Assembly: GCA_951406725.2 (NCBI GenBank) | Contig: OX597818.1 | Location: 129,332,001 to 129,396,000 of the forward strand | From: Octopus vulgaris | Lineage: Eukaryota | Direction: 5' to 3' | Length of the DNA stretch: 64,000 bases | Part shown: positions 1,870 to 45,317 of the stretch, one piece after another | How positions within the stretch are numbered: position 1 is the first letter of the stretch | How the letters are laid out: each line of letters starts with the position of its first letter | Notes under the pieces: generated by a model | Told to the model about the DNA's origin: nothing | The model's input: the letters and a program-made list of their open reading frames with translations, nothing else | Databases searched by the model: none | Program-made: the position numbers and the translations under genes

Positions 1870-3754
1870 GATGCACTACCGACCCCAGAAGATATTTTTA
1901 CAAAACTAAACAGAAGAAAAATATTTTCAAAACTTGATCTCTCTGATGTATATCTACAAATCAAAGTAGATAAAAAAATATTCAAAGCTGTAAATGGTCA
2001 ACACGCACAGAAGTCTATACAAAGACAATAGACTACCTTTTGGACTGAAAGTAGCACCTGCTATATTTCAACAGGTGATGGAATGTTGGCAGACTGTCGA
2101 TTTGCCAGTCCTTACCTTGATGACATGTTAATTAAAAGTGAATCATGGAATGAGCATATAGAACACATGAAGTGTGTCTTTAAAAATATTAAAGATTATG
2201 GTTTCACACTTAGTGAAGAGAGTGTGAATTTCTTTTGCCTAAAATCAGATACCAAGGTCAAATCATAGATAAGAATGGAAGACGTCCTGACCCGTCGAGG
2301 GCAGACACAATCAAGAATATACCTCCTCCAATGAATATACCAACATTACAAGCTTTCCTTGGCCTAGTAAATTGCTATTCCAAATATACATAAATTCAAA
2401 GCACCATTAAATGATTTACTAAAAAAAGAAGTAAAATGGAATTGGTCAGTGAAGTGCCAAAATGCATTTGAAGACATAAAGAAAATACTAATTTCTTACT
2501 TGTCACTAGTGACTTTCAATCTTAAAATGGACATTGTTGTAGTGTATGATGCTCTGGAGTATGGAATGGGAGCAGTCTTGCTATACAAGTATAAAGATGG
2601 AAATATGAAGCCAATAGTTCATGCTTCATGTTCACTTATAGCAGCAGAAAAATAGTATAGTCAGATAGAGAAGGAGGCTCTATCGATTATTTTTGCCGTA
2701 AAAAAATTTCAAAAATTTCTACATGGTAGAAGACTTTTTTACAAACCAACCATCGACCATAGCTATCAATTTTTGGATCAAAAAAGGGATTGCTCACCCA
2801 TGCAGTGAACCAGCTACAATACTGGGGTACAATATTGCTGAACTATAATTTTACGATGCAGTATATTCCGCCAAAGAAAATTGGTCATGCAGACTGCTTA
2901 TCGAGGTTAATTCCCAAGAGCATGGAACCACTAGAAGAGACTGTGATAGCATCATTGCAGTCAGAAAATGAAGCAAGAAGTATTGTGTGTAATATAATCC
3001 AGGAACTTCCGGTGACAGTGGATGATATAAAAATGAAATCCTTAGAGGATAGTTACATAACGAGAATGAAAGAAACATTGGAAAATAAGCATAATGAAAA
3101 TACAAATTCAAATAATTCCTCACTATGCGACGATGTCTTAATGTATGCGCAGAGAGTAGTAGTACCAAGTACACTACAGAAAAGAGTATTGCAACAATTC
3201 CACTGTGGGCACCCGGGAATGTCCAGAATGAAAGCTTTAATGAGGAACTTTGTATATTGGCTGACTATGGACAAGGACATTGAGAAATTGTTGAAAGTAT
3301 GTAGTGGCTGCACATTGGCAACCAAAGCACCACCAGTAAAATACCAATCATAGCTGAAGACAGAGGCCATGGTCTAGGATACATCTTGACTATGCTGAAC
3401 CAGTGAACAGCGCATACTATCTAATCATTGTGGATAGCTATACAAAGTGGCCAGAGGTATGTAGTTGTAATAAATCCATAGCAAAGCTAACAATAAACTT
3501 CCTACTTGAGTTATTTGCTCAATATGGTGCTCCAGACATGTTAGTTTCAGATAATGGAACACAATTCACAAGATATGAATTAAGAAATTTCTGCAAAAAA
3601 CATGCCATAAAGCACATCTTTACCCCACCCTACCACTTGAGGTCAAATGGGCAGGTGGAAAGATTAGTCGATACATTCAAAAGAGCTCTAAGAAAAGCTA
3701 GGAACAAGCTGGATAATGATGAGGCACTAACAAAATTTTTGAGAGTATATAGAA
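1870..3754 (+). pseudogene. gypsy pol remnant: RT, RNase H, integrase
   Basis: FSKLDLSDVYLQ, RLPFGLKVAPAIFQ and YLDDMLI (RT); YDALEYGMGAVL, SQIEKEAL and IGHADCLSR (RNase H); H-x3-H..C-x2-C, IVDSYTKWPE, VSDNGTQF and SNGQVERLV (integrase). Confidence 0.93.
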
Positions 3755-5352
3755 CTAGCAGTATTGCCCAGCGTTGCTTGGGTTTGTTTCAACCCGCTGG
3801 AATTGGAATTTTTGAAAAGTAAAAAGTTTGCATTATGTAGCTTGTTATTCTCTTCAAGTGAACATTTTTGTGGTTGAAATACACCGAAAAGTGGCGACAC
3901 AGCAGTGAAAAAATCGTAAAAAATAGGGATTTTCATAGAAAAAAGCACCTTTTTGATGTAAATAATTTTTGGTGTTAACATGGTCCGATTTGAATTTTAT
4001 CTTCTACGGAAGGAAGAGCAACCCTTCTATCATACTCTCAATTTTGGTCAACTTGCGCCGTAGGGTCTCGGAGGAGATAGTGTTAGTTGAAGGCTACCAA
4101 ACCTGGTGCACACAGACAACTTCAGCTTTATATAGAGAGAGATAACACACACACATTAATACACATACATACACACACACACACATGTATGTATGTATAT
4201 ATGTACATCTGTCCACTTCTTGCCATATTTTTATCCTTCACTTCCTACACACACACACACACACACTCTCACACACACACACACACACACGCACGCACAC
4301 ACACACACCTTCTTAGCTTACAATTTTCTTTCAACAATTGACAACTGAAGTACGCTCACAAATTAATACTACAAAAACTTAGCGACAGAAAGTAAATTAA
4401 AAACCAATTTACCTTTTCTGTTGAGTTATCATTCTAATTCGACCGTCTGATTTCCTTAAATCCGTTTCTTTTCTTCAACTGAACTTAGTTCCTATCGTTT
4501 CTTAAAGTCCTTTGTGAAATCTAGGAGTGTTTATTTTTTGTTATTTCTCGAGAAAGTTTTATTTCCTGGACACTAAAAACTAACAGGAAGTAGACAACAG
4601 TCCCAATACAATGGTGCAATAGTGTAACTCATAATGTGAGCGGCTAGCATGTACTCACCATATGTCAGTGAATTGTTGCTGTGTTGCTGTGAATTGTGTT
4701 TGGTGCCTTTTTTACTAATAACAAACACACATGTGTGTGTGTGTGTGTTTGAGTGTTAGTATGTAGTTGTTTGAAACGTTTGTGTTTGTCACTGTCATAT
4801 ATGTATATGTTTGCGTGTCTATGTGTGTAAAGAGAAAGTAGGAGAAAGTGTGGTAATAGGCGGAGTAAAGCCTTTGAAGTGAGAGAGGGAAATCGTAAAA
4901 TATAGAGTTTTCTCGAATTTTTGCTTAACTGGGGGTCAAATTGAAAGAAATTTATATGCCATGACCGAATGGAATATACTTCGAAAAATCATAGGTAAAT
5001 TCCAATTGAAGAAATTGTGTGAGGAGTAAATCGTTATGTATTTATTTGTTTCTGTTTGCTCTGTATTTGAGTAGTGGTTTAAGGTACACTTGCAAAGAGA
5101 AAGTAGGAGAAACTGTGGTAATAGCAGGAGTGAAGCAGTTGAAATTAGAGAGGCAAATCGTAAAATATTTACTTTTCTCGAATTTTTGCTTAATTGGGGG
5201 TCAAATTGAAAAAACTTTTTATGCCATGACCCAATCGAATCTACTTCGAAAAATCATAGGGAAATTCCAATTGAAGAAATTCTATATTGTAGAATTGTAT
5301 TAAAAACGAACATGGTAACAGGCAGAGAAAATCTGCCTTTTATCATAAGAGA
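3755..5352 (-). mobile_element. Non-autonomous composite Helitron inserted in the gypsy integrase
   Basis: The minus strand starts TC (5352) and ends cccaagcaacgctgggcaatactgCTAG (hairpin plus CTAG, 3755). It sits at an A|T site with no TSD, and removing it restores integrase ..YR-ITQNPNTNSRKSSAELMF. Confidence 0.85.
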
Positions 5353-8960: not shown

Positions 8961-11234
8961 TGTGTGGCATGGATGATCAACTTCATTATTGTTTCATGTC
9001 TGTTTTCAAAACTGGAAAAATTTGGACAGGTCATCATAGTCTTAAACAGTTCTTATTCAGGATCATTGTTCTACATGACAGATCGAGGGACTACGTCTTG
9101 CTCATGTGTTGTCAAATTTGGCATGATTTCTAGATGCAGGTGTGACTGTGTGATTTAGAAGCTTGCTTCCCAACCATGTGGTCATGAGTTCAATCCCACT
9201 GTGCAGTACCTTCTACTATAGTCTTGGGATGACCAAAGCCTTGTCAGTGAATTTGGGCAGATGGAAACTGGTTCTAAATATCTCTTCCCTCACAGATTAT
9301 AACTCATCATAGCATTTGGTAGAATATCACCTGATGAAATGGAGTGGTTACATAATAAGATGAAATTATGCAACATTATCTAATATGGTATAATAAAGAC
9401 ATATAATAATGTTTTTAAGTATCCATTCGTTTTTATTTATTATCTATCTATCTACCTTGTATGTGTGTGTGTGCGTGTGTGTGTGGATGTGTTGTATGTG
9501 TCTGTGTGTACCCTTGTCTAGACATCAGATGATGATTGTAAAGGAACATCACCATCATACAAGCAATGTTTCTTTCGAGTCTTCAATGAATAACATGTCT
9601 GGATATGATAATATATTACCTTGCTTGGAAACAGATGAGAGTTGGCAGCAAAAAGGACATCCAACGCTGGTAAATCTACCTCAGTAAATTCTGTCTGACT
9701 CATGCAAACTATGGAAAAGTAGACATTAAATAATGACGATGATGATACCCTTCATGACACCAACCCCTTTAGAAAGTGTACTAGACACATTTTATCTTGT
9801 CACTAGCACTAGAGACGTTGTAGTTTCCTTAACACAGGAGTAAAGGATCTTCTCAAATCTATATTCTCTCTCTACCCATTTAGCAATCACTTTACAGAAT
9901 CAACACAATTTCACTTACAAGGCACTGGTTAACTCAGCAACTTGGTAAATGATGCTTGTACAATATGCCTCACAGTAGGATTGAAGCTGGTATCTTGTAA
10001 TTGAGAAGCAGACTTCTTAATCCTTTGGCCATGGTGCATCCATATTTTAAGCACACACACACACACACGGACTGGGGATCTAATCCAGGTATACCCACTC
10101 TCATATACTTATGTAATAATATACATTAATGATGAAACACATAAACTAAGGACCATATTGTCTTGCTCTTATACCTGCACATACTCACACACTTACTCCC
10201 AGACTGACTGAGAGTCTAATCCATGTATACACACACACACTCACACACACAAATGCAATAGTATACATATAGAGATGAAACGCAAAAACATGCACATGCA
10301 TGCACACACACATGTATATGCTTGCACACACATATGTATATGCATGCACACACATACACATATATATGCATGCACACACACACACACACAATAAGGAGCA
10401 TACCCTGACACGGGAAATATGGATTGCATCCTCTCCTTCATTCCCTTTCTCTCTCATGTCACACACACACACACACACACACACAAGTGCACACACACAT
10501 ACGCACACATATGTGCATGCACGTACACACACATTACACACACCACACACACACGTACACGGAAAACATGAATATCATTTACCTAGTGATTCAACACAGG
10601 AAATTAAATAATAAATTCTTAGATATTTAATTTAAACTATTGAAATTGTTAAATAAAAAATACAAAAGGAGCCTATAGGTGGTTGTACAGTCTGCTAGAC
10701 ATAGTAGGCAAGTCCTTCTTTTGCTTTAAAAATCAATGAAAGGACACAGTAGTATAGTTTTAGATATATTATAAGAGAGGCCAGTCATAGCAGGAACACC
10801 TTTGATCATAAATCCATTTAATCAGGATTGGCCCCGGGGCTAAACTGCAACAAGAACAACAACAGGAAATTGATAATAAATTCTCAAATCTTTAATTGAA
10901 ACTGTTTAAAACCTTGAATTTGAAATATATTTAATTAAATATATATATATATATGTATGTATATATATATATATATATAAATATATATATATAAATATAT
11001 ATATATAAATATATATATATAAATATATATATATAAATATGTATATATAAATATATATATATCATCATCATCATCATCATCGTTTAACGTCCGCTTTCCA
11101 TGCTAGCATGGGTTGGACGGTTCAACTGGGGTCTGGGAAGCCCGAAGGCTGCACCAGGCCAGTCAGATGTGGCAGTGTTTCTACAGCTGGATGCCCTTCC
11201 TAACGCCAACCACTCCGAGAGTGTAGTGGGTGAT

Positions 11235-11700
11235 TTTATGTGCCACCGACACAGGTGCCAGACGAGGCTGGCAGACGGCCACGCTCGGATGGTGTTTTTT
11301 ATGTGCCACCGACACAGGTGCCAGACGAGGCTGGCAGACGGCCACGCTCGGATGGTGTTTTTTATGTGCCACCGACACAGGTGCCAGACGAGGCTGGCAG
11401 ACGGCCACGCTCGGATGGTGTTTTTTATGTGCCACCGACACAGGTGCCAGACGAGGCTGGCAGACGGCCACGCTCGGATGGTGTTTTTTATGTGCCACCG
11501 ACACAGGTGCCAGACGAGGCTGGCAGACGGCCACGCTCGGATGGTGTTTTCTTATGTGTCACCGACACAGGTGCCAGACGAGGCTGGCGGACGGCCACGC
11601 TCGGATGGTGTTTGTTACGTGCCCTCAGCACGGAGGCCAGTCATTGCGGTACTGGCTACGGTCACGTTCGGATGGTTTTCTTATGTGCCCCCGGCACTGG
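11235..11700. repeat. 63-bp GC-rich tandem repeat (VNTR) in the LINE 3' UTR, about 7 units
   Basis: Unit tatgtgccaccgacacaggtgccagacgaggctggcagacggccacgctcggatggtgttttt; five essentially identical units plus degenerate ones. Confidence 0.95.
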
Positions 11701-11873
11701 TACCACAAGGATACAAATTCCATTGATGTTCATCTATTTTGATTTGGTTCGATTTGATTTGATACGATTCGATTCTCACTTGCCTCAACAGGTCTTCACA
11801 AGTGTCACAAGAAGGAAGGTATGCACAGGTGGACTGACTACGTCCCAGGTAGGGGCCACGGATTATGGCTTCA

Positions 11874-14155
11874 CTAGTCTTGCCGGGTCTTCTCACGCAC
11901 AGCATACTTCCATAGGTCTCGGTCTCTAGTCATTTCCATGGTGAGACCTAACGTCCGAAGGTCGTGCTTCACCACCTCGTCCCAGGTTTTCCTGGGTCTA
12001 CCTCTTCCACGGGTTCCCTCAACTGCTAGGGATTGGCACTTTCTCACACACCTATCTTCATCCATTCTCGCCACATGACCATACCAGCGCAATCGTCTCT
12101 CTTGCACACAACAACTGATGCTTCTTAGGTACAACATTTCTCTCAAGGTACTAACGCTCTGTCGAGTAAGTACACTTACATTACACATCCATCGGAGCAT
12201 ACTGGCTTCATTCCTCACGAGCTTACGCATGTCCTCAGCAGTCACGGCCCATGTTTCACTGCCATGTAGCATAGCTGTTCGTACACATGCATCATACAGT
12301 CTGCCTTTTACTCTGAGCGAGAGGCCTTTAGTCACCAGCAGAGGTAAGAGCTCCCTAAACTTTGCCCAGGCTATTCTTATTCTAGCAGTTACACTTTCAG
12401 CGCACCCACCCCCACTACTGACTTGGTCACCTAGATAGCGGAAACTATCAACTACTTCTAGTTTTTCCCCCGGAAAGTGACAGAAGTTGTTTTCTGCAGA
12501 TTTTCGGAGGTCAATGCTCCAGAGCACCTGCCACATACAAAAACTATCTTCCCGGTTAGCCTACCTTTGACATTGCTGCACCTCTTATGTGTCCATAGCT
12601 TACACTGGGTACATCTTATAGAGTTTCTACCTACACCTTTTCTACAGATCGAGCAGGGCCATCTTCCTGATGATATTTGTGGGTTTTCTACCTTTCTACT
12701 TATTAGTACTTTGGTTTTAGCTAGGTTGACTCTAAGGCCCCTCGATTCTAAACCCTCCTTCCACACCTGGAACTTCTCCTCCAGTTCTGATAGTGACTCA
12801 GCGATTAGAGCGAGGTCGTCAGCATAGAGGAGCTCCCAGGGGCAACCTGTCTTGAATTCCTCCGTTATTGCCTGGAGGACTATGATAAATAGGAGGGGGC
12901 TGAGTACTGAACCCTGGTGGACCCCAACCTCTACTTTGAATTCTTCTGTGTACATGTTGCCAACTCTAACCTTACTTACGGCATCTCTGTACATGGCTTG
13001 CACAGCCCTCACCAGCCATTCATCTATCCCTAGTTTCCTCATTGACCACCAGATGAGGGATCGGGGGACCCTATCAAAGGCTTTCTCCATGTCAACGAAA
13101 GCCAGGTACAGGGGCTTATCCTTGGCTAGGTATTTCTCCTGCAGCTGCCTTACCAGGAATATAGCATCAGTGGTGCTTTTTCCTGGGACAAACCCAAACT
13201 GCATCTCATCTAAACTAACTCTCTCTCTAATTAATTGGGCTATGACCCTCTCCGTAACCTTCATTACCTGATCCAACAGCTTGATACCTCTGTAATTATT
13301 TGTATCCAGGGCATCACCTTTACCTTTGTAGCAGTTGACTAGTATGCTGCTACACCAGTCATTGGGTATGACTCCTTCGTGTATCACCTGGTTGACTATA
13401 CGGGTGACTAGGTTATAGCCGACACTGCCAGATATTTTGAGCATCTCTGCAGTAATTCCTGATGGGCCTGGGGCTTTCCCTGTCTTCATGCTTCTAATTG
13501 CCTTAGCTACCACGGAACTATCAACTCGGATAGCTGGTCCCTCTGTTGGGTCAACATTTGGCAGACTCTCTTTATCCCATTCATTTTCTTTATTCAGCAA
13601 ACTTCCATAGTGGCATCTCCAAACCTCTCTCTTTGCATCCTCATTTAGCGCAAGTGAACCATCATCCATGCGAACACACTTCTCTCCTACCACATCACGA
13701 TTCTCTCTCACACACTGTCTTGCAACACGAAATACCTCAAGTCTTTCATCCTCACGGCTCAGAACATTGGCAAATTTTTTCTTATCCGCTTCCCCTCTGG
13801 CTATATAAACCTGTCTCCTAGCTTCCCTTTTGGCTGTCTGATACAATTCCCTGCTACCACCGTTCTTCCAGTCCTTCCAAGCCTGTCTCTTTTGTCTAAT
13901 AGCCCCGTCAACCACCGTGTTCCACCACCATGTTACTCTGGGTCGAGATGGTACTTTGCTCCATCCACAGATCTGGTCAGTGGCTGTCAGCAGATTGTCC
14001 CGTAGGAATCTCCAGTTGTCTTCCACATTAAGTGAAGCTATACCCCCTTCTATTTCGTCAGAGGCTTCGAGTAGTATGTCTCTAAATCTCTGTCCATTTG
14101 CAGGATCTTTAAGTTTCCAGACCCTTCTCCTCCAAGCTGGTCTTCTTCTGGGCAA
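11874..14155 (-). pseudogene. LINE ORF2 (linker, RT with embedded PHD finger, C-terminus); one frameshift near 12470; endonuclease lost by truncation
   Basis: KAPGPSGI, NYRGIKLL, QFGFVPGKST, FVDMEKAFD, GVHQGSVLSPLLF, YADD, then in the second frame VVDSFRYLG..RRLRWYGHVARM..RGRGRPRKTW. Confidence 0.95.
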
Positions 14156-14170
14156 CCATTTAGTCCTGAT

Positions 14171-14240
<70 letters not shown>

Positions 14241-14454
14241 TGTATGTATGTATGTATGTATGTTTGTATATTTAATTAAATATATTAATTAAAATATATA
14301 CATATATATAAATATACATACATATATATATATATATATGGAATTCATATACATATATATATTTATATACACATATACACCCATACATATACATACAAAT
14401 ATGTATGCATGCATATACATACACATATAAATAGATGTGTATATATACACAAGT

Positions 14455-14919: not shown

Positions 14920-15877
14920 TCCGCAAGGTTCTGAGCTGAAGATTGTAGCCTTATTGATAAAGAGCGATCAGGCAGACCATCCACTACAGATGATGACCAA
15001 ATCAAGTCATTAATTGAGATTAACCAACATTGCACAACCCAAGAAGTGGCAGAAAGCCTCAACCTATCAAAATCCGTCATTCATGAGCACCTGGTAAAGC
15101 TTGGGTACACAAATCGCTACGATGTTTGGGTACCACATGAGTTGAGTGAGAAGAATCTTTCTGATCACATTTCCATCTGTGATTTGCCTTATAAATGGAA
15201 TGAAAATACACCTCTTTAAAGCAAATTGTGACAGGTGATGAGAAATGGATTATCTACCAAAATGTTCAGAGAAAGTGATCCTGGAGTAAGTGACATGAGC
15301 CACCCTTAGCCACCCTGAAAGCAGGTTTTCACCCTAAAAAAGTCTTACTTTGTGTCTGGTGGGATTGGAAAGGAATTCTGTACTATTAGCTTCTACCAAG
15401 TAACCAGAAAATTAATTCTGAGAAATACTGCACACAACTGGATGGGTTAAAAGCAGCAATTCAAGAGAAATGTCCAGAATTGGCCAACAGCAAGGGTGTT
15501 GTTTTCCAACATGATAATGCAAGACCGCAAGTTTCTTTGAGAACCAGACAAAAATTGCTTCAGCTTGGTTGGGATGTGTTTCCCCATCCTCCATATTCAC
15601 CAGATATTGTTCCTTCGGATTTACACTTATTCAGGTCTCTTCAGAATAGTCTTAATGGTAAAAATTTCAATTCCTTGGATGAAGTAAAAAGATACTTTGA
15701 TGAATTCTTTGCCATGAAACCACATCAATTCTGGAAAGAGGGTATTTTCAAGTTAAAGGAAAGATGGAGATGCATTGTGAAACAAAATGGTTCATATTTG
15801 GTTGATTAAAAATGTAATGGCAAGTATTTATTGACCTTTTTCTTTCCTTTAAAAATTGGCACGAACTTTCTGGAAAC

Positions 15878-17801: not shown

Positions 17802-18534
17802 TATGAAAATATGGGGTAGGGGAGCATTTTTAATTTATATTCTTTCTCTCTTCTTCACACACACACAAACACACTCTCTCTCTGTGTCTGTCTCTCCATC
17901 ACTAAACTTTGCAAAGACTGCTTCACCACTACACTGCAGAAACCCCTAACATCTTTCAAGAAAGGTAGATAGATTGATAAATAGTTATATAAATAAACAA
18001 AAAAGGGAGATAAACAACAATAGGATAATAAGGGTATTTACATGGAAAGCTGCATATTCAAATGAACATACGTTTGCAGAGGTAATTACATCAAAGAAGT
18101 GATTGAGGAGGGAGACCATGTTCCGATATAATATAGTGAGTGACTCACAAAACAAGTCACAAGGTACATCCTCTACTTCTTTTGTAAAGAATTCCACCAT
18201 CAACTACATACCAGGAGATATTATAGGGCATATTCTCAGCTTTAAAGTGGAGGGTTTTCTTGAGCAGTTAATTCATTGAATTACTCAATGAGTTAGCTTG
18301 TAAGTGGCTGAGTATTCTACAAAAACTTATACTCTTAACATAATTCTCAGGCTAGATTATTGTGGCAATTCATTTCATCTGGTGGGATTCAGTGGTTTCC
18401 AACTGTCAAATTTCACTTACAAAGCTACAATTATCCCAAGGCTATAATAAAAAAAAAACTCTTGCTTAAGAGACCATGCAATGGGATCAAACCCAGGATC
18501 TCATGATTGTAAGGTGAACTTCTTCACCAGTTGA

Positions 18535-18615
18535 AGCTCTGATGAAGCTATTGAGGGACACAAAAGCACTCAACTATGAGTGCATTGCAACTCATAGCAG
18601 AAACAGCTGTAAGCT
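18535..18615 (+). ncRNA. Putative minimal type-I hammerhead ribozyme
   Basis: agct-CTGATGA-a[gctattgag..ctcatagc]a-GAAA-cagctg-TA-agct: complete catalytic core, extended stem II, palindromic stem III, GUA cleavage triplet. Confidence 0.7.
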
Positions 18616-19306
18616 AATGAAGTTCATTAGATAATTTCATGTTCCTTTGTCATTTTAATTGCTTATTACTGCCCTCTACTTGACTGACACTTTGTTCTGA
18701 AGTATATGTATATTGAGTTCTAATGCCAGGTTATTAGTATCACTATGCCTAAGTGAAATAATAAAATATATATGCGTATGTGTGCATGTGTTCTTGAGTG
18801 TATACTTTAACCAGCTTATATGGATGGAAGCATGTGTGTGTACAACGATATAATTGTACGTTAATGAATCTGATCCCTTCCTTGGAAAAGGAAGAAGTTG
18901 TTCAGTGTTAATTGAACATAAAGTCCATTAAGCTTTAATTTGAAGAGATTTTATTAAGATTTAATTGAAATTCAGTCCCACTGAATATTAGTAGTTAAAA
19001 GTGTTTGTATGTAGTTGACAGATGGAATTTTAATTATCTCTTTAGGTGTAGTAGTTTGGATAAATGTTAACTCAACTTTTCTATTAGACTGCAAGTAAAT
19101 ACCCACAAAGTTTGGTTGCAACCTGAGTTAATCTAGCGCAACACTATTTGAAGGTACAATTGGGATGTTGAGTGTTCTTTAGGAGAAGATTCAAGCACCC
19201 AGCAAACTGAGTCTGCCTCTCATTCAAGGGTATTTCTCAAGGGTTTTAACAGCATCAAATCAAAATAAAAAGCTCTCAAAAACTGGCTTTGATCAAAATT
19301 AGAAAT

Positions 19307-30810: not shown

Positions 30811-31221
30811 AACCGCCACCTTCATTAAACGTACATGCAGCCAGCCTCTCATCCAGTTCCCTTCATCTGTGGTTTTTGCTCCATCAGTTGAACAAGTAAG
30901 TCTCTTTAAATGCTGTTGGATGTTCATGATACTTACAACAAAGGGCTCTTTAGAAAATATTGCATTTCAGCTCAAGGGAACTGCAAAGTAGCATTACAAG
31001 ACAAAAGAACTAATGTGCTGCCAGTTATACCTAGAGAGTCAGTTAAAATGGTTCCAGCTTACTTATAAGACAACAATATGCATGTGCGCATTTGTGTGTG
31101 TATGTGTGCATAGACACATTCATAGACATATATACATACACATTTTGCTTAGGCATTGTGAGGTAATGAGCCGATGTAGAAATCAGTATAGATATGCATC
31201 AGAAGAAAGTGTTAGGTGAGT

Positions 31222-31580
31222 ATAGGGTGATAATAAGAAAACGAGGTGATAAAAGAATAAAAGATTATCTTATGAGCTCCATTAGCTTGCAGCTGTTTCT
31301 GCCTTAAAATGCAACAGACTCATTCTTGAGTGCCTGAATAACATTTTATAGCTTCATCAGAGCCTTGAATATGAAGCAGACTTTATTTGGGAAAAGAATT
31401 GTATTTGTGATTACATACAAGGAAAGGCATTGCCAGCTTCATATTTGAGGCTCTGTTGAAGGTATAAGGTGTTATTCACTCAACTTTGAGTCCACTGCAT
31501 CTTATAGCAGGAACAGTTGTATTCTAATTAAGTTAATAACATAATCGTTCTTCCCTTTGTCATCTCGATTTCTCATCTGT
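31222..31580. mobile_element. Inverted pair of hammerhead-containing repeats (Penelope pLTR/retrozyme-like)
   Basis: Minus arm HHR motif at 31284-31364 and plus arm degenerate motif at 31449-31525; both homologous to 18535-18660. Confidence 0.65.
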
Positions 31581-32102
31581 GTGTGTATGCGTATGTGTGT
31601 GCGTGTGTGTGTATATATATAGTAAGAAAAGGTAAGTTGTAATGTAAAATATAAATATAAAATAAAAAAGGAAATGCACACAGTTTACATAGTTTTAATG
31701 TATTTTTTGATATATTTTATAAGTGAAAGAGTATTTGTGTTTGTTGACCGGTTTCACTTTCACTAATCATGACATTGAAATTATTGTAATTTCATATTTT
31801 CTTAAGAAGATTTTTGTCCATGCTGTGTATGGGAATTTCATTCACAGATTCCCATATTATGTCTGACATAGCAGATGCAGAAATACACATAGTGAAGTAT
31901 GCTGTATTTTGAACTCATAGTCAGCCTGAGGCTATATGAGACACTTGCCCAAGATGCCACAAGGTACTTTGTAGTGGGATTGAACCTGGAACCATCATCT
32001 AGGGTTTCCTTTCAAAGAACTGATGATGTAGGTACAAGAGATTCTCAGTCATTGATATTTAACCCTTTAACATTTACATTTCTTTGTCAAATGTATTGCT
32101 TA

Positions 32103-37524: not shown

Positions 37525-38090
37525 TCATCATCATCATCATCATCATCGTTTAACGTCCGCTTTCCATGCTAGCATGGGTTGGACGGTTCAACCGGGGTCT
37601 GGGAAGCTAGAAGGCTGCACCAGGCCCAGTCTGATCTATCAGTGTTTCTACAGCTGGATGCCCTTCTTAATGCCAACCACTCCGTGAGTGTAGTGGGTGC
37701 TTTTTACGTGCCACCTGCACAGGTGCCAGACAAGGCTGGCAAACGGCCACAATCGGATGGTGCTTTTTACATGCCACCGGCACGGAGGCCAGGCGAGGCT
37801 GGCAAACGGCGATAATCGGATGGTGCTTTTTACATGCCACCGGCACGGGGACCAGACGAAGCTGGCAACGGCCACGGTCGGATGGTGCTTTTTACGTGCC
37901 ACTGGCATGGAGGCCAGGCGAGGCTGGCAATGGCCACGATCGGATGGTGCTTTTTACGTGTCACTGACACGGAGGCAGTCGGGGCGGCGCTGGCAATGGT
38001 CACGTTCGGATGGTTCTCTTATGTGCCACCGGCACTGGTATCACAGCTACAAATTCCATTGATGCTGACAGATTACAATTTTGATTTTCG
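37525..38090 (-). mobile_element. RTE-LINE 3'-UTR fragment with about 5 VNTR units
   Basis: Homologous to 11062-11760. Confidence 0.9.
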
Positions 38091-38890: not shown

Positions 38891-40093
38891 CAGGGGTTGG
38901 ACAAAATAATGGAAACATCTTAAAATGTCAAGCAAATATATTTTAATATGGAGTAGGACTGCCTTTGGCAGTAATTAAAGCTTGAATTCTATGAGGCATG
39001 GGCTTGTACAAAAAATGAATTGTTTCCAAAGGAATTTTTGTCCATTTTCCTTCTAAAACAGTCTCCAGTTCTTGTAGTAATGATGGTGGAAGATATCGAC
39101 TCATTACTTGTTTTTCTAAAATGCACCATAAATGTTCAATAATATTGAGATCTGGGGACTCTGGTGACCAAGTTAAGATATTCAACTCACTACAAAGATT
39201 GCGTTTCCCTCCGGAAACAGTTTCACAACCCTAGGATGAATTTGATCTGATAACATGCTTAAACAGTATTGACTATTAATTCTACCATGAAGGGAAACCA
39301 TTAAGCTGGTAGATTTCCAAGATATAGCCCCCCACCCCAACGATCATTACAGATCCTCCTCCATGTTTAACAATTGGAAGAAGACAGTCTGGGTCAAATG
39401 CTTAGTTTTGGCTGTCTCCACATGTATACTCAGCTGGTGGCTGGAAATAAAGTAAATGATGACTTGTTCAAGAAAATAACATTCTTTGACTCCTCTAGGG
39501 ACAAACTCTATAGATTTTTACTCCACTCTAAATGCTTTGCAATGTTTGATTTTGAAAGTAGTGGTTTTCTGATTGCAGCCTTCTCGTAAAATCTGGCTTT
39601 GTGCAGCTCTCGGCAAACAGTTTTTATGGAAACCAGGTTCTTGAAGTATTCATTGAGCTCTGCAGTGATATTGGGAACTGTACTTTTTTGATCCTTTCTA
39701 ACAATTTGCATAAGAGTCCAAAGGTCCCTATCTGAAAGTTTAGGTTTTCTTCTGGAGTTTTGTTTTGACGAGGAGGTTTTCCCCTCTTTCACAAAGGCTG
39801 TCATTACTTTCGAGACAGTACTTCTTGATACACCAAACATTTTGGCTGCTTTCATTACACTAGCGCCTGCCATACAAGCACCAACAATTTGACCTCTTTG
39901 AAAGTCTGATAGATCTGTCATTTTAATGAATTTTAATTATCTTTTTCTGATGATATCTGAGAAGAAACATATTAAGCAACACTAATAAGAAATCAGAAAG
40001 CATAAACATAATCAAGCTTTTGATGCTTTTATAGCTATGTCAACATTATGATGCTATGATGCTAGGTGTTTCCATTATTTTGTCCAACCACTG
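38891..40093 (-). mobile_element. Full-length decayed Tc1-like transposon
   Basis: TIRs caggggttggacaaaataatggaaaca / tgtttccattattttgtccaaccactg with TA on both sides; transposase MTDLSDFQRGQIVG...WSPESPDLNIIEHLW (39921 to 38943), frameshifted. Confidence 0.95.
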
Positions 40094-44840: not shown

Positions 44841-45317
44841 TCATCATCATCATCATCATCATCGTTTAGCGTCCGTTTTCCATGCTAGCATGGGTTGGAC
44901 GGTTCTACTGGGGTCTGTGAAGCCAGAAGGCTTCATCAGGCCCAGTCAAATCTGGCAGTGTTTCTACGGCTGGATGCCCTTCCTAACGCCAACCACTCCG
45001 AGAGTGTAGTGGGTGCTTTTTACGTGCCACCCGCACAGGTGCCAGACAGAGCTGGCAAACGGCCACGAACGGATGGTGCTTTTTATGTGCCACCGGCACG
45101 AGGGCCAGGCGAGGCTGGAAACGGACACGAAACGGGGCGGTGCTGGCAACGGTCACGAAACGGAAGGTTCTCTTACATGCCACCGGCACTGGTAACACAT
45201 CTGCAATTTCCATTGATCGATTTCAATTCTGATCCTCACTTGCCTCAACGGGTCTTCACAAGTAGAGTTTCGACATGCCACCGGCACTGGTAACACATCT
45301 GCAATTTCCATTGATCG

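Follow-up and report, generated by a model that had tools for sequence, protein, structure and literature searches.

A hammerhead motif in a 5'-truncated 3' end of an old, likely Hydra-clade Penelope-like retroelement of Octopus vulgaris

The window analysed here is a stretch of 64,000 nucleotides of the Octopus vulgaris genome (contig OX597818.1, positions 129,332,001 to 129,396,000). With high confidence, the site at 18535-18615 is a genuine hammerhead motif, and it lies in what is left of an old, decayed and likely autonomous Penelope-like element (PLE) of the Hydra clade, namely its 3' end, truncated on the 5' side. The motif is predicted to cut only as a dimer, and the lone copy here is likely an inert relic. 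The assignment to the Hydra clade is likely, judging from motifs and similarity. An earlier note on this DNA had recognised a type-I, dimer-type hammerhead in a dispersed family with a Penelope connection, and both readings are borne out, the former by a descriptor search, the core letters and (for the dimer) folding, the latter by ORF remnants and the layout of the copies. Its proposal of a separate non-autonomous family or retrozyme is not supported, given that the copies have no fixed 5' end, are dispersed rather than arrayed and are joined to Hydra-type ORF remnants.

All the hammerhead parts that the note had named are present where it placed them (Table 1). In the window copy the type-I core is complete (C3 U4 G5 A6 N7 G8 A9, G12 A13 A14 A15.1 and U16.1 H17), and there are three helices whose ends meet in helix I, with 4 bp in helix I and 2 bp in helix III; at N10.1-N11.1, where a pair is expected, A-A stands instead. 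A strict type-I descriptor, one of the checks that had been proposed, finds this single site in the 64-kb window and 1 match per 200 dinucleotide-shuffled windows. The proposed search with hammerhead models came out empty, no hammerhead model being among the matches listed from Rfam scans of the window. The motif had been called intact, which is true of the core but not of outer stem II, where 6 of the 11 pairs of the family register survive and a shifted register rescues part; five of the 22 differences from the family majority (over 249 places) fall there. The element, whose end had been set at 18660, in fact reaches approximately 18773 and ends in an AT/TG microsatellite, and no target-site duplication of at least 6 nt was found at 18531-18773.

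Table 1. Positions of the hammerhead parts, the element that carries them and the second family copy within the window.
Feature	Position	Strand	Remark
Hammerhead stem I, 5' strand (AGCT)	18535..18538	+	
Core box C3-A9 (CTGATGA = CUGAUGA)	18539..18545	+	
A at position 10.1	18546..18546	+	mismatched with A18599
Long stem II	18547..18598	+	strands 18547-55 / 18591-98; outer helix partly decayed in window copy
Inner 7-bp hairpin within stem II	18566-72/18577-83	+	
A at position 11.1	18599..18599	+	
Core box G12-A15.1 (GAAA)	18600..18603	+	
Perfect 8-nt palindrome ACAGCTGT	18603..18610	+	2-bp stem III in monomer; predicted 8-bp intermolecular helix in dimer
GTA (GUA) triplet	18609..18611	+	predicted cut after 18611, from hammerhead consensus
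Stem I, 3' strand (AGCT)	18612..18615	+	
5'-truncated 3' end of old, likely Hydra-clade Penelope-like retroelement (pLTR remnant + tail)	18531..18773	+	~245 bp
Remaining pLTR to first preferred 3' terminus (~18665)	18616..18665	+	
Optional ~107-nt tail to second preferred 3' terminus	18666..18773	+	
Second family copy, with tail	31106..31386	-	both extra As; cleavage triplet GCA, core broken
Inverted, tail-less piece at 5' end of second copy (Penelope-type inverted 5' segment)	31429..31578	+	

According to the folding predictions, the active form is favoured only as a dimer. In the monomer, stem III has a probability of 0.0 and the fold with an active core makes up approximately 0.15% of the ensemble, and self-cleavage of the window copy as a monomer is predicted to be weak; for the dimer, the minimum-energy structure is a double hammerhead in which helix III has 8 bp, at -53.9 kcal/mol compared with -45.0 kcal/mol for a pair of separate monomers. 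This result agrees with the absence of monomer activity and the low dimer activity reported for such motifs (Cervera and de la Pena, 2014; PMC4209133). The window copy is solitary, and dimerisation in cis is therefore unavailable to it. Stem covariation within the family, another of the proposed checks, was not above shuffles in 25 core-picked copies, in which the core is fixed by the selection of rows, and the RNAalifold consensus of these 25 copies prefers a fold other than the hammerhead. Across Hydra relatives, the helices differ in their letters but remain paired.

PLEs are described as having 5'-truncated copies, inverted pieces at the 5' end and a tail at only one of the two ends, and the copies of this family show these hallmarks, with a tail of ~107 nt that is usually at one end. 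In 29 copies picked by their core, the extension upstream of the motif is continuous from 0 to at least 326 nt, and the 3' ends lie at ~18665 (17 copies), at ~18773 (11 copies) or between the two (one copy). An inverted 5' piece is present in six of these 29, four of the six having the tail at one end only, and in 10 of 29 BLAST-picked copies, none of them with a full tail. The family is dispersed and not tandem (a second forward piece is close by at only one of 58 loci, L014), and the 3' flanks, read by eye, are mostly TA, CA or TAA repeats, which corresponds to insertion into (TA)n-type microsatellites. An optional tail has been traced elsewhere to two internal start sites of reverse transcription (Frangieh et al., 2024; PMC11167929). 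In a young Hydra-clade relative, a tail of ~75 nt repeats the start of the next unit. The tail end of many copies of the present family (18753-18773) has an ATG followed by an open AAT-rich run, and by analogy with the young family this ATG may mark where the ORF of the next unit begins.

The link to a coding parent comes from ORF remnants. Over at least 600-800 nt upstream of the motif, the copies have a common sequence that is non-coding and rich in microsatellites, and queries moved stepwise upstream reduce the candidates from 3,107 to 875, 28 and 19. At locus L096, the C-terminus of an endonuclease lies between an inverted and a forward copy of this upstream sequence. The DNA of the L096 ORF led to 17 other loci, four of which carry the hammerhead element, inverted and directly upstream in L174, L175 and L176 and forward, 1.7 kb downstream, in L166; the remaining 13 have no hammerhead piece within the 9.9 kb fetched. 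A further 20 loci were chosen for similarity of protein or ORF; the inverted piece is present in L272 and L275, and L287 has one in forward orientation, 4.4 kb upstream. When the loci of another family ('Y') are left out, 2 of 16 protein-picked loci (L272 and L275) are linked. L103, which was picked by upstream sequence, also abuts a Hydra-type ORF. As background, 49 loci chosen on account of other repeats gave 0 matches in 171,034 bases, and the link at 5 of 37 loci has a p of about 2e-5, calculated with an upper-bound density.

The remnants themselves are decayed, of RT-thumb and GIY-YIG type, with RKITWYNPP, CxCX5C, CxxC and LLNKR..E..CxH (the L174 remnant itself has CxCX5C), and they match an intact 727-aa protein of the same genome (41% over 73 aa, E 8e-14). 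This protein carries RWK, DKT, CxCX5C, CxxC and CxH, which are motifs of the Hydra clade (Craig et al., 2021; PMC8557442). An RT with a C-terminal GIY-YIG-type endonuclease (CxCX5C linker, CxxC, CxH) is found in the decayed remnants of the linked loci, none of which lies in the window; RWK and DKT are seen in the intact relative, the family's own ORF having been recovered from RT motif 7 and the thumb onward, without the N-terminus. A Neptune-type control protein matched none of the remnants, and Pfam gave no match for the remnants or for the intact 727-aa protein. In no single locus examined is there an unbroken run of ORF, 3' UTR and hammerhead: other insertions interrupt L096 and L166, and the ORF link mostly goes through inverted pieces. 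The host genome has a size of 2.8 Gb and is rich in microsatellites, in which Penelope-like families cluster; with this clustering, and three neighbouring ORFs of other families, neighbourhood alone can mislead. The GIY-YIG/RT ORFs beside family copies at L096 (+), L094 (both) and L108 were rejected as the parent, having their own 3' ends and belonging to other families, and the inverted family of L094 was discarded with the hammerhead element in 0 of its 30 loci. L096:4249-5379 and L094 represent a Neptune-type PLE family (GIY-YIG); at its 3' end stands a hammerhead-like motif distinct from the one described here, with ACCGGT as its palindrome. Another family of Neptune type has 2,772 candidates of ~90% identity.

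A DNA search of the genome gave 3,107 first-look candidates, the best 40 of which are 79-86% identical over 18531-18773. The exact 32-letter core pattern has 68 matches in the genome and none in the control, and the product of the per-site majority frequencies over the 32 letters, estimated from 65 copies not picked by their core after removal of 8 duplicate loci, is 2.7%; 68 exact matches at this rate imply about 2,500 copies, which places the family at roughly 2,500-3,100 copies. The median divergence from the majority is 13% (8.4% for the window copy), and a tree of 55 copies is star-like, with a median end branch of 0.11 and support for 2 of 52 inner branches. The family is therefore old, and neutral decay is enough to account for a copy with a perfect core: the core of the window copy survives because ~3% of copies still match by chance. 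The core sites other than U4 vary less than the background (33 vs 64 expected), which is read as selection on source elements plus some search bias; some copies may also have been under constraint.

Position U4 (18540 in the window) is C, giving CCGAUGA, in 17 of 47 unbiased matches, or about a third of copies. The proposal that the U4 of the window copy arose by CpG decay of C4 was rejected as a general case, the 47 unbiased matches having TG in 27 and CA in 2. C4 copies keep other CpGs more often (18/41 vs 27/107, p 0.045) and are not clustered on the tree, and symmetric CpG decay does not account for U4C. Two sequencing runs presumed to be of RNA gave only contigs of other family copies.

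A different origin for the family would be a non-autonomous, non-coding retroelement, similar to a retrozyme or a SINE, that is copied in trans by a Penelope-like enzyme, with the Hydra ORF remnants as mere neighbours or products of template switching. Nearly all copies are indeed non-coding, 13 of the 29 BLAST-picked ones reach no more than 5 nt beyond the motif on its upstream side, and retrozymes are reported to derive from pLTRs (bioRxiv 10.64898/2026.07.22.740005). The BLAST set, however, is biased by its short query, and in the core-picked copies the extension is continuous from 0 to at least 326 nt; tandem arrays are missing, L014 being the exception among the 58 loci, and the ORF link is far above the background. 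We consider this origin improbable.

The two remaining explanations concern the window copy itself and are weaker still. That selection has kept it as a host ribozyme cutting a local transcript is very improbable, even though all 32 of its motif letters equal the family majority, as in 0 of 60 other spanning copies, and contigs of two other organisms span the 5' junction of the insertion (X4, with 10 differences in 359 bases, and X6, with 4 in 355), so the insertion is shared. A complete core is, nevertheless, what chance alone predicts for ~2.7% of copies, and 68 have it; outer stem II is decayed and monomeric stem III is not predicted to form; the only other family copy in the window lies 12.5 kb away on the opposite strand and has lost U16.1 in its broken triplet; and no host-gene ORF is evident near the element. 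That an unrelated repeat resembles the hammerhead pattern by accident would accord with the silence of Rfam, the RNAalifold consensus and the lack of within-family covariation, yet it is barely credible in view of the rate in shuffled windows and of the same position, core and type of stem III in Hydra relatives and in File S2 of Craig et al. (2021; PMC8557442); one Hydra relative, L338, has the identical palindrome and GUA.

If the element is a truncated Hydra-clade PLE, its history can be proposed as follows. A tandem transcript of the source element would carry two hammerheads that pair by way of the 8-nt palindrome and cleave on the 3' side of GUA, probably slowly or with the assistance of the protein that the element encodes. 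The cut site is contained in every inserted copy, which means that the template was RNA that had not been cleaved. The RT-endonuclease of the element would nick AT or microsatellite DNA, and reverse transcription would begin at one of two internal sites of the uncleaved tandem transcript, which would account for the optional tail. Synthesis would stop early, in the window copy just past stem I, and in other copies a second, inverted cDNA piece would be joined at the 5' end.

The mismatch at 10.1/11.1 had been suspected to be a family trait, and this is confirmed: A stands in 63 of 65 and in 58 of 69 aligned copies, and both As are also found in the minus-strand copy at 31.3 kb. In a metagenome survey beside Hydra-type ORFs (55 of 77 loci), 46 distinct hammerheads have U-U (26), G-C (14), G-U (3), A-U (2) or C-A (1) at these positions and A-A in none. 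The Hydra locus L280 combines A-U with U4C, and a young Hydra-clade family of the same genome has A-A in 99 of the 100 matches listed, out of 3,741. In File S2, stem II of the Hydra hammerheads is flanked on both sides by an extra nucleotide; the two are mostly U-U, and no entry there has A-A (Craig et al., 2021; PMC8557442). A mispair of U-U at 10.1/11.1 is a known exception and is reported to be tolerated better than any other there (Perreault et al., 2011; PMC3088659), and A-A is thus expected to slow cleavage. A literature search for a published A10.1-A11.1 hammerhead or cephalopod PLE hammerhead found none beyond Craig et al. (2021); variant studies or supplements may cover A-A. Mismatches at 10.1/11.1 are common in Hydra hammerheads, and A-A would be the version found here. 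More tentatively, and with considerable doubt, its fixation in two distantly related Hydra-clade families might reflect selection for a brake, under which the RNA stays uncleaved and available for reverse transcription until cutting is triggered by a partner ribozyme or by the protein of the element; A-A would then be a third purine-purine pair extending the sheared G8-A13/A9-G12 stack, and U4C would serve the same end.

The young family (L268-L270, at C20:70.35 Mb, C8:36.04 Mb and C12:36.37 Mb) has intact 727-aa ORFs (99% identity) and occurs in both tandem and inverted arrangement. Its motif has 3,741 matches, many of which form inverted pairs at short distance. The hammerhead of this family is tiny, with a 2-bp stem II, a GNRA loop and A-A at 10.1/11.1. 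Hammerhead-like motifs with a palindromic stem III also lie near Hydra-type remnants at L271:317, L273:5314, L277, L280:5067 and L285:9213. In the window, at ~31700-31760 (-), the 3' end of another repeat with GAAAC-CGG-TC lies just upstream of the inverted piece and recurs in L108; it is possibly a further PLE hammerhead family. The window also contains an LTR-type integrase remnant, a LINE RT with a PHD-like finger and mariner/Tc1 transposase remnants (2763-3822, 12461-14275 (-), 15390-15806 and 39511-39936 (-)), as well as 63-bp tandem units that end an abundant dispersed repeat (11165-11715, 37633-37930 and 44949-45183), the body of which also begins at ~19305.

The locus itself is of little weight, a fossil fragment of a known class with a small variant. 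Tying a short repeat that looks unannotated to its parent retroelement aids repeat annotation, and the range at 10.1/11.1 among Hydra hammerheads (U-U, G-C, G-U, A-U, C-A) now includes A-A in octopus families. The young intact family offers a natural pair of ribozyme and protein with which to study the function of Penelope hammerheads and the question whether their activity is kept low by design.

The octopus family resembles the Hydra-clade PLEs described by Craig et al. (2021; PMC8557442) in its CxCX5C linker, CxxC and CxH, with no CCHH seen, in a sense type-I hammerhead near the 3' end with a stem III of the ACAG..CTGT type, in the extra nucleotide on each side of stem II, and in (TA)n-type targets, inverted 5' pieces and a tail at one end. 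It differs from the File S2 entries, mostly U-U or paired, in its A-A, and from the clade as described there in a stem II of ~52 nt with an inner hairpin, a perfect palindrome without spacer, and a 3' UTR of more than 1 kb with a tail of ~107 nt, compared with the quoted 30-40 bp; the hammerhead of Hydra-1_Obim in the same work is a different sequence. With the minimal PLE hammerheads of Cervera and de la Pena (2014; PMC4209133), whose activity is low even as dimers, it shares a long helix II, a short helix I, a palindromic helix III and an occurrence mostly as single dispersed copies from truncated PLEs, with opposite-strand pairs 100-700 bp apart; in those motifs a single additional nucleotide separates 9 from 10.1 and the next pair is G10.1-C11.1, whereas the octopus family has a second A before GAAA. 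Poseidon PAc of Anolis has two RT start sites that give an optional tail, and a hammerhead that is uncleaved in inserted copies and reported to be protein-assisted (Frangieh et al., 2024; PMC11167929); it belongs to another clade and its behaviour was shown in vitro, while that of the octopus element is inferred. The non-LTR retrozymes of metazoans have a similar type-I hammerhead with a weak helix III, and helix II of the axolotl HHR_Amex2 has a mismatched U-U at its base (Cervera and de la Pena, 2020; PMC7229834). Retrozymes, however, are tandem repeats of 150-450 bp expressed as circles, whereas the octopus family has no short tandem hammerhead repeats and no fixed unit length, and its copies are dispersed, 5'-truncated and linked to a coding ORF.
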